Part shown: one piece after another, positions 23,360-29,573 of the stretch
How the letters are laid out: every line of letters begins with the position of its first letter
How positions within the stretch are numbered: the first letter of the stretch is position 1
Assembly (NCBI GenBank): GCA_022827275.1
Contig: JAJDTG010000010.1
Location: forward strand, 155,641-219,640
Direction of reading: 5' to 3'
DNA from: Candidatus Dadabacteria bacterium
GTDB lineage: Bacteria; Desulfobacterota_D; UBA1144; Nemesobacterales; Nemesobacteraceae
Length of the DNA stretch: 64,000 nucleotides
Notes under the pieces: model-generated
What the model was told of the DNA's origin: nothing
The model's database searches: none
The model's input: only the letters and a program-made list of their open reading frames with translations
Position numbers and translations under genes: made by a program

Positions 23360-23517
23360 CTTCAGGGTCTCCTTATTCCGAAATTAATTTATACCACAAC
23401 CCCCGTTTCGGACATTTAGATGCATTTCCTTTGAATACAACCATTCTAGTTGCTCAAGCTGAGATTTTAGCCCCGAAAACAAGAATAACAAGCCCCCCTC
23501 AATAGGCTTTCTCACTT

Positions 23518-23889
23518 CTAATATTCTCCTGTCAAAGCATCCCACTCAAAAGAGGTGAGAAAACGCTTATCAACAACAGCTATGCCGTTTATCTTACAAT
23601 CGGAATCAAATACGTATGCAATATTAAACAACGTAGGCTGTTTCTTGCCTTTTTTCTTGGCAACAGCGATTCGGATTATTCCCCCTTTTAAATTTTCATC
23701 AGACAACGGATCATTCCGAATCATTTTTAACCGTTCCCATCCTCCTTCCTCTTTTAAATGTTGAATGACCGCCGCCTCGGCAGTTTCAAGATCTTTTATC
23801 CCTTGACAGTGTTTTTGAACTGCCAAAGCGAAGATAGTACCTTCGCAAAGAAGAAATCCTGTCACGATCAATAGAATTAACCTTTTCAT
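23518..23889 (-). CDS. Small secreted hypothetical protein (signal peptide), inside the low-GC island
   Basis: 123 aa with an N-terminal signal peptide (MKRLILLIVTGFLLCEGTIFALA). I recognised no family. The local sequence is AT-rich. Confidence 0.35.
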   Translation of the reverse strand: MKRLILLIVTGFLLCEGTIFALAVQKHCQGIKDLETAEAAVIQHLKEEGGWERLKMIRNDPLSDENLKGGIIRIAVAKKKGKKQPTLFNIAYVFDSDCKINGIAVVDKRFLTSFEWDALTGEY

Positions 23890-24159
23890 GTTCGATACCT
23901 TCTCTCTTCCTATGCAGAGATTAGGTTGTAGAAACTAGTCCTGCCAAGATAAGGCAAAACCGTTCCTGTAATAATTCATTTTTCTATCTGTTTAAGAAGC
24001 AAACTCAAGCTCTAGCTCCCTTTAAAAAGAGTTTGGATTCTGAAGGTCTCGAATCGAAAATCATATCAACCTCATTTCCATATAAATCTATACCATTAAT
24101 ACGGCGGGAACACACTTAAAGAAAACGAAAAACTGTCTTAATGTAGTGGTACACTTCTT

Positions 24160-27100
24160 TCAGGATTTTGCAACATCAATTACACAGACTGATATCTTGC
24201 GTTGCTCGTCGGTCGTGAGGCTGTTAATTAATCGTTCTTTAAGCTCCATGGCACTTTGCGGACGTGTTCCCGATCCTGGGGGCCGACATGACTCTTTGCC
24301 AAACCAGAATACTAAATAGATGCCATAGCCATCTGTCTCTGGGTCACGGGTATATTTCGCAATCAGTTGGCTTTTTATTGCACTCCATAAATCTTGATTA
24401 TTGCTTCTTTTTATCTCGATTGGAATATTACACATAGCCTTGTATGCGATACGAATATCTGACCTCTTGTCATCTGCATAACGGCCTTCCGGTTGTGGAT
24501 CAATTCCTAATGGGTTGAGTTTTATTCTTAGGTCCGAAAGCAATATATCTCGACAGAAGTTTTCAATGCGGGGTTTTGCGGGCTTGTTTTCTGTATCCAT
24601 ATCCCAATATTGACGCCAGTCAGATGTGTTGCCATCACGGATGTTCTTAGCAAGGTCAGTCAAAATATCTATTGTCAGTGCTGACAGGTCCGCCGCATTT
24701 GCGGGGTTCTTGTTGTCTAGAGTTTCAAGTACCTGGTTGACGCTGAAATGGCTGAAACTGGCTTCGCGACGAGCTGACTTCTGTGTGCGAAGAGCCTCCG
24801 TGAGGTATTGTTTCCATGAGAGTAACTCGTCATCTGATGAGAGTCTTTCAAGTGCTTCAGTAGCGCTTGGCGATTGAATCGATGTCAGTTGCTGAATTAA
24901 TCTATGAACAAGATTTGCCGCTTCGGTCGATGGACTGACCCAACCGCTTTCCTCTGGGTCTGATAGCTTTGGTTTGTCAGAAGCTTCAATCAGTCTATAT
25001 TTGAACAGAAGTCCAAGCGCATCCTCGGGTGACAGCCAAGTGAAGGGTGATGAATGTCCGATTGTCCGAATCAGAAATTCCAGTGCCGGGACATCTAGGC
25101 GTTTGATCAGTTTATCCGGGAATTCTTTGATGCATTCCAGTAGATTTTTAACTCTAAGCTCTCGACCGGTTAGACATGTCTCTAATTTTTCAATAAAACT
25201 TGAAGGCGAAACGATAAGTCCGGCTGTAAGCCAGTAGACACGTTGGGCTATATCCATGCTAGAATAGGAGAGCTTTCTTTTGACTAATTTTAGGAAGGGT
25301 TCTTCATCGCAGTGAAGAAGTGCCGCTCTGAGCAGATAATTCAATCCCGACAGTTGCTGCTTAACGCATCGTACAGAAAATTTCTTCAGAAGTTGTAAAG
25401 TGGCAAGGTTCGCCGCTTTTGCGTAATCATCTCGGAACGCCAGTCTGTACAGATTTGAGAGAGTCTCTTTGCTTTTACGCATTCTAGATAGAGCACATGA
25501 GGTTAAAACATCTGAAACTATATCTGGATTGGACACAAGCAATTTCTGGTACCAAAGAGGATGGGAATTTAAGAAACTTGTCGGCAGTGGTGCGTTGTAA
25601 TAAAAAGCAATGGCTTGGCGCAACTGCTTTTCTTTAATGGGTATTTCTTCAAACTCAGGGTTGTTTCTGAATATCTCTTCCATGCCGGCTAAAAAGGGGA
25701 GTGCTAGATAATGTGCTTCATTGTTCTCTCTTAGCTGTATGATTTCAGCTTCATCCGGTATGTCGGAGCGAATAAGCGATTCCTGAAAAGCCTTGAGAAC
25801 TGTTTCTACTAGGTATTCATTGCCACCGAGAAAGTCGTGCAAGTGGTCTGCGGGGTTACCACTTGGAAAGTTTGCGTTTTCCCCGAAAAACACTCTGGCT
25901 AAGTTGTGGAGCAAACGCGGCGAGCATCGGTTTTCACTTAGTACTTCTTTGTGTGATTTCAGATAGTTGATCCGTTTAAGTAGTTCCTGTTGCTCTCTTG
26001 CTTTTTGTTCCTCGGTAAAATTTTCTTGCTGCCTTGATATATTACGGTAATTAGATTGCGATGCTAAGAGTAGCTGTTTAAGGTCGGGTTTGTCAGCAAG
26101 GGCTTCCTCAATAACTTCTTCAGAAAGCCCCTTATTGAAAATGTTGTTTTCTATAGTGTGAGCCGCCGTGTGCAGGAAAAATTTTTTGAAATTTTCGTCA
26201 GTTGAAGCTATTGCGTGCTTAAGGCACCAAAGTCCGAAGTCTTGTGGAGGAATACATTCGAGACCACGGTCTCTGAAAAGTCTCCGGTCGATTTCATGAG
26301 GTTTTACATCGTCGCATTTCATCCATTCTTCAAACACCGCCTTCTGCATTTCTGGATGATCGTTCAACCATGAACGAATTTCCATCTTGTGGCTACCCCA
26401 GTCCACAATCTGACAGTCCGATACGATCCAGAGCCAGATTGAGAAACGGTCCAGAGGAACTTGGTCCTCCGCCATAGCAAGGAATCTAGCTAACCAGGCT
26501 GGAAACACCGTGGAAAAGAAGCTGAATTGCTTTTTTTCGGTTTCGTATTCAGCGAAAAAACTGTCAGAACGTCCGTAAAGCCCGTCAAGCAACTCAGCAA
26601 GTTGAGTGGTTGTTGTTTGTTGTAATATATCTCTAAGCCAGAAGAACCTGTAACTTCCGCTAAGATTCGGGGCTTTTGGTTCTCTGAAATATTTCCAGAT
26701 ATCCGAAGAAGAAAGAATGTCTGGATAAAGCTCTTTAAGGAGAATTCCCAGCAGCTGATCATCTGGGTCTGATATCGACTCCGCATTCACGTCCTCTAAC
26801 AGATTTGTCATTTGAGTTAGGGAATGGTTGCCATTTTTTCCTTGTTGGATAAACGCACGGAGGGCGTTATCTCTGACATTCGGTGGCCAACTGTCATCTC
26901 TAACAATTTCCAGCAGAGCATCTCCAAGTTCAGGTATGGATGATCCGTGTTGAAGAGTTTCTAGCAGTAACCTGACAAGTGATTGTTGCGTATGGTTTCT
27001 TTCCGGATCAGTTAGAACGTTTTGAAAAAATTCCCGCACATCCGGCGTAGCCAGATATTCCAAGTGAGAATCATGTCCGATTAGCTGTGTATACCATGGA

Positions 27101-28317
27101 TTTTTCTTCGTTTCATCGGCTATATGGTTCAAAATTTGGTGCTTCTCATCAATGGAGAATCCCCAAACGTCACCATAGAGAATTGTTCCAAGTGGGTCAC
27201 GCTCGATAATCTCTCTTCTGCTTTGCGGACTGTGTGCCGCAAGCCAGGCAGAAAGACCGCGCAACTCAGACACAATTCCACCATCATATCCCGTCATCAA
27301 GGCGAGTACTCGTCTGACAGGAAGTCCCTCTTGTATTAGTTTTGCAAGATATTGTCCGCCTAGAAATTCGGCAACTTGTCTGTGGATTGGACTTACATGG
27401 GTTTCAGTGGGAGATTCAAAGGGAGATTCAAATAGCTTGGTGCTAAGCACATGGTGAAAAACTTCTTGGTCTTCGGTGTGTATTCTTTTCAGATGTATGT
27501 ATTCATGGCTTGTCTCGTTATGCGTGAGAGTGTATCCGGCATGACCGGTAAGAAGTTGTATTGCGCAAAGCCTTCCGGCTTCATTAAGCAAGCTGCGAAT
27601 ATCGCTAGAATAACGTTTAACTAATTCATGCCCTTGATTGTGTTCTTCAAGTAATTTACGGCAGGCGAGACCGAACGTTTCCATTCGGGTTTCCGGCCAA
27701 TTCCCGTCAGCAACTGCTGACGCCAGCATCTTGAGATTCTGGGGATTTACGAGCAAGATGCCGATTCCTTTTTCCTCAGCTGAAGCAACAAATAGTTCTG
27801 GATTATTAACGCCGTGGTTGCAACACAGAATTTTAAGGATGTCCTCGCGGGATAATGGGTCAAGGCGTAAAACCTTGAGCTTTCCGTCTGGTGACACATC
27901 TTTCAAATGATTTCTGTCGTTAGCTCCGAACCAGTCGGCTTCACGACAGGATAGACGGAAACGAGGACACCCTAAATCCTGAAGTTTTGCCCGAATTTGG
28001 TCAAAGGGTGTGCGCTGGTCGGACACTCCTGCACGCATTTCGTCGAGACCGTCAATAAACAATGTTGTTCCATGCCATTCAGGGCGATTTTCAAACGTGA
28101 TGAAGTTACGTGCAGTGACATAATGGCCTTCTTCTTGGGCTGCTTCTCTTTTAAATGCTTCCGTTTTTCCGGCACCTGGGGGACCGAGCAGCACGTAGCA
28201 ACTGTTGCCCCTGAATTCTTCCAACGGCATTGAAGAGGATCTATCGTCATGACTGCCGGTTTCAGGGATCTCGGTACATGTGCGGGGAGCAAAGTAATTC
28301 ATGATTTCTCGAACCAA
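24160..28317 (-). CDS. Large (1385 aa) STAND-type P-loop NTPase with NACHT-like motifs, a long alpha-helical repeat region and a C-terminal PD-(D/E)xK-like motif
   Basis: Walker A is LLGPPGAGKTE (about aa 40-50). A NACHT-like Walker B FIDGLDE follows, then RFRLSCRE, which is sensor-1-like (hhhhTSR). About 850 aa of helical repeats come next. The C-terminus reads ENFCRD…ADDKRSDIRIAYKAMCNIPIEIKRS (an E…D…ExK arrangement). Local GC is about 47%, against roughly 58-60% in the flanks. The start overlaps the upstream ATPase gene by 19 nt. Confidence 0.55.
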   Translation of the reverse strand: MVREIMNYFAPRTCTEIPETGSHDDRSSSMPLEEFRGNSCYVLLGPPGAGKTEAFKREAAQEEGHYVTARNFITFENRPEWHGTTLFIDGLDEMRAGVSDQRTPFDQIRAKLQDLGCPRFRLSCREADWFGANDRNHLKDVSPDGKLKVLRLDPLSREDILKILCCNHGVNNPELFVASAEEKGIGILLVNPQNLKMLASAVADGNWPETRMETFGLACRKLLEEHNQGHELVKRYSSDIRSLLNEAGRLCAIQLLTGHAGYTLTHNETSHEYIHLKRIHTEDQEVFHHVLSTKLFESPFESPTETHVSPIHRQVAEFLGGQYLAKLIQEGLPVRRVLALMTGYDGGIVSELRGLSAWLAAHSPQSRREIIERDPLGTILYGDVWGFSIDEKHQILNHIADETKKNPWYTQLIGHDSHLEYLATPDVREFFQNVLTDPERNHTQQSLVRLLLETLQHGSSIPELGDALLEIVRDDSWPPNVRDNALRAFIQQGKNGNHSLTQMTNLLEDVNAESISDPDDQLLGILLKELYPDILSSSDIWKYFREPKAPNLSGSYRFFWLRDILQQTTTTQLAELLDGLYGRSDSFFAEYETEKKQFSFFSTVFPAWLARFLAMAEDQVPLDRFSIWLWIVSDCQIVDWGSHKMEIRSWLNDHPEMQKAVFEEWMKCDDVKPHEIDRRLFRDRGLECIPPQDFGLWCLKHAIASTDENFKKFFLHTAAHTIENNIFNKGLSEEVIEEALADKPDLKQLLLASQSNYRNISRQQENFTEEQKAREQQELLKRINYLKSHKEVLSENRCSPRLLHNLARVFFGENANFPSGNPADHLHDFLGGNEYLVETVLKAFQESLIRSDIPDEAEIIQLRENNEAHYLALPFLAGMEEIFRNNPEFEEIPIKEKQLRQAIAFYYNAPLPTSFLNSHPLWYQKLLVSNPDIVSDVLTSCALSRMRKSKETLSNLYRLAFRDDYAKAANLATLQLLKKFSVRCVKQQLSGLNYLLRAALLHCDEEPFLKLVKRKLSYSSMDIAQRVYWLTAGLIVSPSSFIEKLETCLTGRELRVKNLLECIKEFPDKLIKRLDVPALEFLIRTIGHSSPFTWLSPEDALGLLFKYRLIEASDKPKLSDPEESGWVSPSTEAANLVHRLIQQLTSIQSPSATEALERLSSDDELLSWKQYLTEALRTQKSARREASFSHFSVNQVLETLDNKNPANAADLSALTIDILTDLAKNIRDGNTSDWRQYWDMDTENKPAKPRIENFCRDILLSDLRIKLNPLGIDPQPEGRYADDKRSDIRIAYKAMCNIPIEIKRSNNQDLWSAIKSQLIAKYTRDPETDGYGIYLVFWFGKESCRPPGSGTRPQSAMELKERLINSLTTDEQRKISVCVIDVAKS

Positions 28318-29573
28318 TCCTTTGCCGGCACCGACAAAAATTCTTCAATCGGGATTCCGCCTTCGCCGACCAGTTCGCAGCGCAGAGGGTTGAACCGTTT
28401 CTCAAACTCTTCCAGTCCACTCATGTTTACTTGCTTTAGACTGCTTTTGACTTCAAAAGCAACAATCTTGGAACCCCGTTCCAGAACGAAATCCACCTCG
28501 TAATTCTTATCCCTCCAGTAATAGAGATGGACATTATCCCGTATTCCTGTGTTGAACAGATGGGCGCCTACTGTGCTTTCGACAAGACGTCCCCAAAAAC
28601 TGCGGTCCGCTTTTGCCTCTTCAAAGGTGTATCCTGAAGAGGCTGACATAAGCGCGGTGTTAAGAACGTTAAGCTTAGGACTTGACGCCTTGCTGCGGGA
28701 AACGCCGCCCGCATACTTCTGAAGACCGGAAATAAGTCCTGCATTTGAGAGTAAGTCCAGATAGTGGGCCAAAGTTGTCGTGTTGCCGGCGTCTTTGAGC
28801 TGGCCGAGCATTTTATTGTATGAAAGTATCTGGCCTGAATACGCCGCGCCTAGTTCAAAAAGTCTTTTTAATAAAGCGGGTTTGTCCACGCGTCGCATCG
28901 CAAGGATATCGCGCTCGATGTTGGGTTCAACCAGAGCGCCGGTAATATACCGTTGCCAGTCTTCCTGCTTTTGAATTAACGGAGCTCCGCCTGGATAACC
29001 TCCAAAATAGATGTAGCTCTGCAGATCAAAATCAAACGCCGAGGACATCTCCGCAAATGACCAGTGAGCGAGATGTATAGGGAAAAAGCGTCCGGCCAGA
29101 CTTTCGCTTAACCCCGTCTGCATAATCAGGGGAGCGGAACCGAGCAAAACGACATGAAGGGGACAGTCATTCCATTTGTCCTCGTCCCACAAACCCTTAA
29201 CGGTTTCCGACCAGTTGGGGATTTTCTGGATTTCGTCAAACACAAGAATAAACCCGCGTTCCGAACGCCTAGCCTCTCTTCTGGCTTGTTCCCACCTGCG
29301 TACGAGCCACCTTGAATCCTTTTCCACGCTTATTGAGATGCTGGTTTCATCCGGTGTGGTAATTGAATCTTGTTCTGTATCTGGCAACGGATAGAAGGCG
29401 GTTGATTCGGGTTTGTCTACGGGCAGATATAGACTGCGCAGGTCGCATTGATACAGCGCTTGGCGAATAAGAGTGGTTTTGCCTGACTGACGGGGGCCGG
29501 TAATAATTGTAAGGAGTTTGGGTGCCTCGTTCAGGCGTTCGACGAGATCTGATATTATAGGTCGTTCGTACAT
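28299..29573 (-). CDS. AAA_14 / DUF4143-type ATP-binding protein (P-loop ATPase with a C-terminal restriction-endonuclease-like DUF4143 domain)
   Basis: 424 aa. The Walker A motif reads IITGPRQSGKTTLI, Walker B is ILVFDEIQKIP, and the C-terminus reads YEVDFVLERGSKIVAFEVKSS. This is the widespread AAA_14+DUF4143 architecture. The gene is low in GC. Confidence 0.6.
   Translation of the reverse strand: MYERPIISDLVERLNEAPKLLTIITGPRQSGKTTLIRQALYQCDLRSLYLPVDKPESTAFYPLPDTEQDSITTPDETSISISVEKDSRWLVRRWEQARREARRSERGFILVFDEIQKIPNWSETVKGLWDEDKWNDCPLHVVLLGSAPLIMQTGLSESLAGRFFPIHLAHWSFAEMSSAFDFDLQSYIYFGGYPGGAPLIQKQEDWQRYITGALVEPNIERDILAMRRVDKPALLKRLFELGAAYSGQILSYNKMLGQLKDAGNTTTLAHYLDLLSNAGLISGLQKYAGGVSRSKASSPKLNVLNTALMSASSGYTFEEAKADRSFWGRLVESTVGAHLFNTGIRDNVHLYYWRDKNYEVDFVLERGSKIVAFEVKSSLKQVNMSGLEEFEKRFNPLRCELVGEGGIPIEEFLSVPAKDWFEKS

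Follow-up and report, generated by a model that had tools for sequence, protein, structure and literature searches.

Introduction

The bacterial NACHT (NLR-like) antiphage proteins Erebus, Hypnos and bNACHT64 have been grouped as Avs10; they are activated by the phage major capsid protein, a protein of the HK97 fold, binding the penton- or hexon-forming face of its A-domain, and members of the group lose toxicity when the effector domain is mutated or deleted (Lee et al. 2026, bioRxiv and Nature; PMC13581612). Here we analyze a large relative of these proteins and the gene directly upstream of it, both encoded in a 64,000-nucleotide stretch of DNA from a Candidatus Dadabacteria bacterium (assembly GCA_022827275.1, contig JAJDTG010000010.1, positions 155,641 to 219,640), which we call the window. 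The primary studies associated with Erebus and bNACHT64 are reportedly those of van den Berg et al. 2024 and Kibby et al. 2023. We propose, with a probability of roughly 0.75, that the C-terminal domain of the large protein, Pfam family DUF8371 (PF28130), is a PD-(D/E)xK nuclease domain and the effector of an Erebus/Avs10-type NACHT antiphage protein. A first-pass annotation of the window had pointed to this site and had overlooked the upstream gene, which carries an AAA_14 ATPase domain and a DUF4143 domain.

Results

The large protein is a close relative of EruA

The open reading frame (ORF) list and its translation give a minus-strand ORF of 1385 codons at 24160..28317, and the likely start of the gene is the ATG at 28302, which yields a protein of 1380 amino acids; all residue numbers below count from this ATG. 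It shares 4 bp (ATGA, in TCATGA) with the stop codon of the upstream gene. The features of the large gene are as follows, in plus-strand coordinates.

24160..28302, minus strand: large EruA-like gene with NACHT nucleoside triphosphatase (NTPase), helical sensor and predicted C-terminal PD-(D/E)xK domain; stop codon at 24160-24162
27058..28302, minus strand: NACHT-type STAND NTPase module, residues 1-415
28162-28185, minus strand: Walker A motif, GPPGAGKT
about 28039-28059, minus strand: Walker B motif, FIDGLDE
24778..27057, minus strand: helical HEAT/TPR-like presumed sensor, residues ~416-1175, with weak HEAT matches at 414-512
24163..24777, minus strand: conserved C-terminal module, residues 1176-1380, DUF8371 (PF28130)
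24367..24564, minus strand: predicted catalytic core, E1247/D1282/E1296-I-K1298/Q1312, from invariance and secondary-structure placement
24562-24564, minus strand: E1247, in ENFCRD
24457-24459, minus strand: D1282, in SDIRIA
24415-24417, minus strand: E1296, in IPIEIKRS
24409-24411, minus strand: K1298, in IPIEIKRS
24367-24369, minus strand: Q1312, a further invariant residue

The three motifs named in the first-pass annotation (ENFCRD, SDIRIA and IPIEIKRS) are all present in the translation of this ORF, although it had assigned them to the plus strand. Its range of 24405-24480 holds the aspartate and the ExK but leaves the first glutamate outside, within the broader 24160-24620, and its D1289 and E1302/K1304 are off by one or two positions, as these residues are D1287, E1301 and K1303 when the 1385 codons are counted.

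Residues 18-1377 align in one colinear stretch to positions 8-1317 of the 1318 positions of the NCBIfam model NF058535, "NACHT domain-containing antiphage protein EruA" (E 2e-283). The score of 943.8 bits is narrowly below the 1000-bit equivalog cut-off of this model, so we regard the protein as a close relative and not as a curated EruA equivalog; its clade mates score 897-939 bits, and stand-alone homologues encoded on plasmids score 776-792 bits where tested. The HyoA model NF058534 gives 217.6 bits for the whole protein against a cut-off of 1200, and the C-terminal 161 residues alone match its positions 1313-1428 of 1430 (E 7.6e-12). Judging from the names only, EruA and HyoA are presumably the gene names of Erebus and Hypnos. 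A literature search for "EruA/HyoA" returned only an unrelated E. coli regulator, one for "PF28130" returned no papers, and no match emerged when complete E. coli genomes were searched with the DNA of the Pantoea homologue for an annotated EruA/HyoA locus.

The first-pass annotation had placed the nuclease C-terminal to the sensor and described this as the reverse of characterized Avs proteins. The domain does occupy the very C-terminal end of the protein, past the helical sensor, while we only infer its role as an effector; the order is indeed opposite to the N-terminal-effector norm, but it is the constant layout of the validated Erebus, Hypnos and bNACHT64 proteins. Because the large protein aligns end to end with EruA, a C-terminal effector would be a trait of a validated family rather than a new inversion. 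We rejected the idea of an N-terminal effector since the NTPase begins at about residue 30 and its P-loop at residue 40, leaving no space ahead of it.

The C-terminal domain has a predicted restriction-endonuclease fold

AlphaFold2 modeled the last 206 residues confidently (predicted local distance difference test score [pLDDT] 88.4, predicted template modeling score 0.83). Two helices come first in the module, followed by the core at 1247-1376, in which the elements run, in model numbering, helix 73-91, strands 93-97, 109-113 and 117-125, helix 134-143 and strand 153-159. This is the alpha-beta-beta-beta-alpha-beta core of the PD-(D/E)xK superfamily, so the structure prediction agrees with the restriction-endonuclease fold claimed in the first-pass annotation. 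The candidate catalytic residues fall at matching places in the model: E1247 opens helix 73-91, D1282 lies just before strand 109-113, E1296-x-K1298 is within strand 117-125, and Q1312 is in the second helix. The nearest folds are those of BamHI/BstYI-type restriction endonucleases and of the Can2/Card1 nuclease domains, and a Foldseek search of the PDB with the C-terminal model returned proteins of the same kind. An alignment with Mrr and NucS had also been suggested, but we rejected membership in either family, as neither gave a sequence-profile match and the likeness is at the level of the fold only. The assignment is therefore made at the superfamily level, there being no sequence match to Mrr, NucS or solved structures. 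Taken together, the last ~200 residues are predicted to form a PD-(D/E)xK domain.

The putative active site is invariant

The bare pattern E..D..[DE]xK occurs at 12 sites in the large protein compared with 7.4 +/- 2.4 in shuffled sequences, which is not above chance, so we rejected the motif as significant by itself; the C-terminal site is judged real on the basis of its conservation and fold. We aligned 81 orthologues that are 38-53% identical to the query and were drawn from 80 species-representative genomes across many phyla; E1247, D1282, K1298, Q1312 and Y1317 are present in 81/81 sequences and E1296 in 80/81. The glutamate, the aspartate, P-x-E-x-K and the glutamine are likewise invariant in 50 C-terminal fragment homologues and in 38 full-length homologues (47-87% identity), and the catalytic residues are retained in three distant stand-alone plasmid homologues with 26-35% identity, so the D/E/K positions highlighted in the first-pass annotation are kept across homologues. 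Mean conservation of the query residues over the 81 sequences is 0.585 in the C-terminus, 0.52 in the NTPase and 0.32-0.38 in the sensor, so that conservation is highest in the C-terminus and lowest in the ~760-residue helical middle, which evolves fastest. Such a pattern would be compatible with a conserved effector coupled to a rapidly changing sensor.

The N-terminal module is predicted to be of the NACHT type

Both Walker motifs of the large protein (GPPGAGKT with K46, and DGLDE with D87/E88) are invariant in the 81-sequence alignment. The predicted model of residues 1-415 is of moderate confidence overall (pLDDT 70.6) and reaches 80-90 in the nucleotide-binding domain, and NLR NACHT modules are by far its best structural matches. 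In the model, a P-loop domain carrying both Walker motifs precedes helical and winged-helix domains, as in NLRs, which is consistent with the NACHT clade. A Pfam scan of the large protein gave no NACHT-family profile match, its sole NTPase match being AAA_22 (E 0.044), and an N-terminal profile run against the PDB returned P-loop-level matches only.

The large protein has more than 4498 homologues, and its relatives occur in more than 560 species-representative genomes, mostly of uncultured environmental lineages. A query with the single protein against genome contigs found no relatives, and an alignment query then found them. The profile of the DUF8371 domain retrieved 3319 cluster representatives among 1.84 billion proteins, and the domain is at the C-terminal end in the best 150 of these 3319. 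Nearly all hosts of the close-relative loci (L006-L085) are uncultured and known from metagenome-assembled genomes; they include Latescibacterota, Binatia, Nitrospirales, Gemmatimonadota, Acidobacteriota and uncultured Gamma- and Alphaproteobacteria. Two copies are present in some genomes, for example OZ250159.1 (L019 and L028).

An AAA_14-DUF4143 gene is directly upstream in every close-relative locus examined

The gene upstream of the large gene encodes a protein of 424 amino acids, hereafter the partner, with the following features.

28299..29573, minus strand: partner gene, AAA_14 ATPase and DUF4143 (Pfam, PADLOC)
29475-29498, minus strand: Walker A motif of the partner
28446-28499, minus strand: motif E359/D361...E374-V-K376 of the partner

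Pfam scores are 7e-31 for DUF4143 and 3.6e-22 for AAA_14, and the partner matches the PADLOC candidate system PDC-S01 (PDLC04791, E 2e-165) over positions 1-394 of 395; it has no match among NCBIfam antiphage models. DUF4143 is catalogued within the PD-(D/E)xK superfamily (Steczkiewicz et al. 2012), and proteins of the partner type are absent from the text of Lee et al. (PMC13581612). A partner homologue is directly upstream on the same strand in 85/85 loci, 82 of them from other genomes and 3 from the window's own contig and its duplicate. The 82 loci span Nitrospirales, Latescibacterota, Binatia, Gemmatimonadota, Acidobacteriota, Chloroflexota, Alpha- and Gammaproteobacteria and others, and in most loci the partner match ends no more than a few bases from the start of the NACHT gene. 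The two genes usually abut or overlap. Across relatives, the partner is conserved at 56-69% identity versus 38-53% for the NACHT protein, and its G31/K32 (Walker A), D113/E114 (Walker B), E359, D361, E374 and K376 are kept in 97% or more of 80 sequences. The large protein belongs to a widespread sister clade that is defined by an obligate AAA_14-DUF4143 partner. The two proteins are co-translated and probably act together, and the partner could share or modulate the effector role.

One database protein of 1812 amino acids (P0346) joins the two in frame, with the partner at residues 1-~425 followed by an EruA-like protein whose DUF8371 domain is at 1607-1812 (junction ...PATAWLRSE|FVQRTCTEI...). 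This may be a genuine fusion of the two genes, or else an artifact of assembly or of a frameshift where they overlap at ATGA.

The plasmid-borne homologues examined lack the partner

The partner was found in 0/7 loci examined that hold more distant homologues on plasmids. These stand-alone EruA-like genes (L086-L092) are carried by plasmids of Pantoea, Vibrio, Ralstonia, Bradyrhizobium, Rhizobium and Burkholderia, next to Ppl, Abi, SIR2, RES, HEPN-nucleotidyltransferase, Schlafen/AlbA-ATPase and integrase genes, settings that are typical of defense islands or mobile elements. An "ATP-binding protein" upstream of the Burkholderia homologue was considered as a partner and rejected, being a Schlafen/AlbA_2-HATPase_c_4 protein.

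On plasmid pAB510e of Azospirillum sp. B510 (L093:4932-5801), a "hypothetical protein" of 289 amino acids matches only query residues 1122-1378, at 40% identity, and corresponds to the C-terminal nuclease module alone. IS21 genes and a relaxase lie a few kb away. The protein probably represents what is left of a truncated gene and not a nuclease that acts by itself.

Genomic setting

In the window, a solute-binding-protein gene and rpiB border the two-gene module, which sits within a run of housekeeping genes and occupies the same chromosomal site in a related genome (L003). The guanine-cytosine (GC) content of the large gene is 43-45% compared with 50-56% in the flanks, which suggests horizontal acquisition of the module. 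The GC fraction is 0.40-0.45 over window positions 23500-27500, covering the large gene and a short ORF of 123 amino acids just downstream of it (23518-23889, minus strand). This ORF has no match in Pfam, PADLOC or NCBIfam, and it is called as a gene on contig L002 and not on L001.

Discussion

A mechanism for the NACHT protein can be drawn by homology to Avs10 and by analogy to Avs1-4. The variable helical sensor (residues ~416-1175) would bind a phage protein that is conserved, perhaps the major capsid protein as in Avs10, and the ATP-bound NACHT module would oligomerize. Oligomerization would gather the C-terminal nuclease domains into active dimers or tetramers, and metal-dependent DNA cleavage through E1247, D1282, E1296 and K1298 would then halt the infection and probably kill the cell as well.

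Several observations weigh against DUF8371 as the effector nuclease. Neither the full-length large protein nor its C-terminal 161 residues had a useful match in local scans against Pfam and PADLOC, the local Pfam copy having been scanned without PF28130, and the C-terminal domain had 0 matches at E values up to 10 when its sequence was searched against the PDB. The EruA score stays below the equivalog cut-off, and the partner has an intact nuclease motif of its own. That the C-terminal domain is the published effector of Erebus is something we take from second-hand information, and a July 2026 paper terms the Erebus mechanism "currently unclear".

The partner could be the real nuclease effector, with DUF8371 binding DNA, mediating oligomerization, or docking or activating the partner without cutting. 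Its position directly upstream in 82/82 loci of other genomes, usually coupled, its higher identity than that of the NACHT protein, the invariance of its Walker A and B motifs and of E359, D361, E374 and K376, and the one fused protein all speak for such a role. However, all of the catalytic residues of DUF8371 are invariant, as would not be expected of a purely structural domain, and the three stand-alone plasmid homologues keep them as well, in a group of plasmid loci from which the partner is absent, which makes DUF8371 the only candidate effector in those proteins. We consider a partner effector with a non-cutting DUF8371 unlikely.

Similarly, two independent defense genes, a PDC-S01-type and an Erebus-like single-gene system, might merely travel together, with the C-terminal nuclease acting alone. 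Defense genes often cluster, PADLOC lists PDC-S01 as a candidate system by itself, and stand-alone EruA-like genes do occur on plasmids. The adjacency in 82/82 loci, with gene order and strand preserved across many phyla, is nevertheless far tighter than ordinary co-occurrence in defense islands, and an in-frame fusion was found, so mere co-travel appears improbable, slightly more so than a non-cutting DUF8371. A non-DNase role of the fold, as a ribonuclease or nucleic-acid sensor, or a STAND regulator outside defense could draw on the RNA-acting and non-catalytic members of the superfamily (Steczkiewicz et al. 2012) and on the housekeeping genes that flank the locus, but it is very hard to reconcile with the conservation of the full catalytic set, the end-to-end homology to models of validated antiphage proteins, the GC content lower than in the flanks and the defense or mobile-element contexts of homologues.

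Retaining DUF8371 as the effector nuclease, we suggest tentatively, and at somewhat less than an even chance, that the clade represents an obligate two-protein system in which the AAA_14-DUF4143 ATPase-nuclease and the NACHT-sensor-nuclease work as one machine, an arrangement undescribed for Avs or bNACHT proteins. We suggest this because of the usually coupled pairing in 82/82 loci of other genomes and the one natural fusion. The partner might license, load or complete DNA destruction begun by the NACHT nuclease, or it might instead hold this nuclease inactive until the phage protein is sensed; if so, one system would combine two ATPases and two PD-(D/E)xK active sites. Should the partner be required, NLR-like bacterial sensors could operate as nuclease systems of two components, and PDC-S01, so far a PADLOC candidate, would gain a functional context. 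For Erebus itself, the PD-(D/E)xK assignment and its four invariant residues make the mechanism testable by mutation.

Comparison with known systems

What is new here is the pairing with AAA_14-DUF4143, while the C-terminal-effector layout was already known from a validated family. Like PDC-S01/COG1373 proteins, the partner has AAA_14 and DUF4143 domains and a full-length match to PDLC04791, but PDC-S01 is a single-system name with no stated NACHT link, whereas here the partner gene is the obligate and translationally coupled neighbor of a gene for a NACHT-nuclease protein. BamHI, BstYI, OkrAI and BglII and the Can2/Card1 nuclease domains are only 7-13% identical to the C-terminal domain and share no sequence-level family membership with it, and BamHI-type restriction endonucleases are stand-alone sequence-specific enzymes, in contrast to a domain tethered to a NACHT sensor.

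Avs1-4 (Gao et al. 2022; SeAvs3, EcAvs4) have in common with the large protein a STAND NTPase, a helical repeat sensor and a PD-(D/E)xK effector, here a putative one, and the model of pattern recognition followed by oligomerization-driven nuclease activation would apply to both. Their layout of N-terminal effector, central NTPase and C-terminal sensor is not that of the large protein, in which the nuclease is C-terminal and of another family (DUF8371), whereas in Avs1-4 it is N-terminal and of the Cap4 or Mrr type. Hypnos/HyoA has a homologous arrangement of NTPase, sensor and C-terminal domain but is far more distant, its model being ~110 positions longer (1430 vs 1318) and aligning with the query from position 189. 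Erebus/EruA is the closest, with a NACHT module, a long helical sensor and a C-terminal domain with the same invariant residues, and presumably also with the sensing of a phage structural protein, oligomerization and nuclease activation; it differs in that our protein scores below the equivalog cut-off and in that the clade of our protein always has an AAA_14-DUF4143 gene directly upstream.

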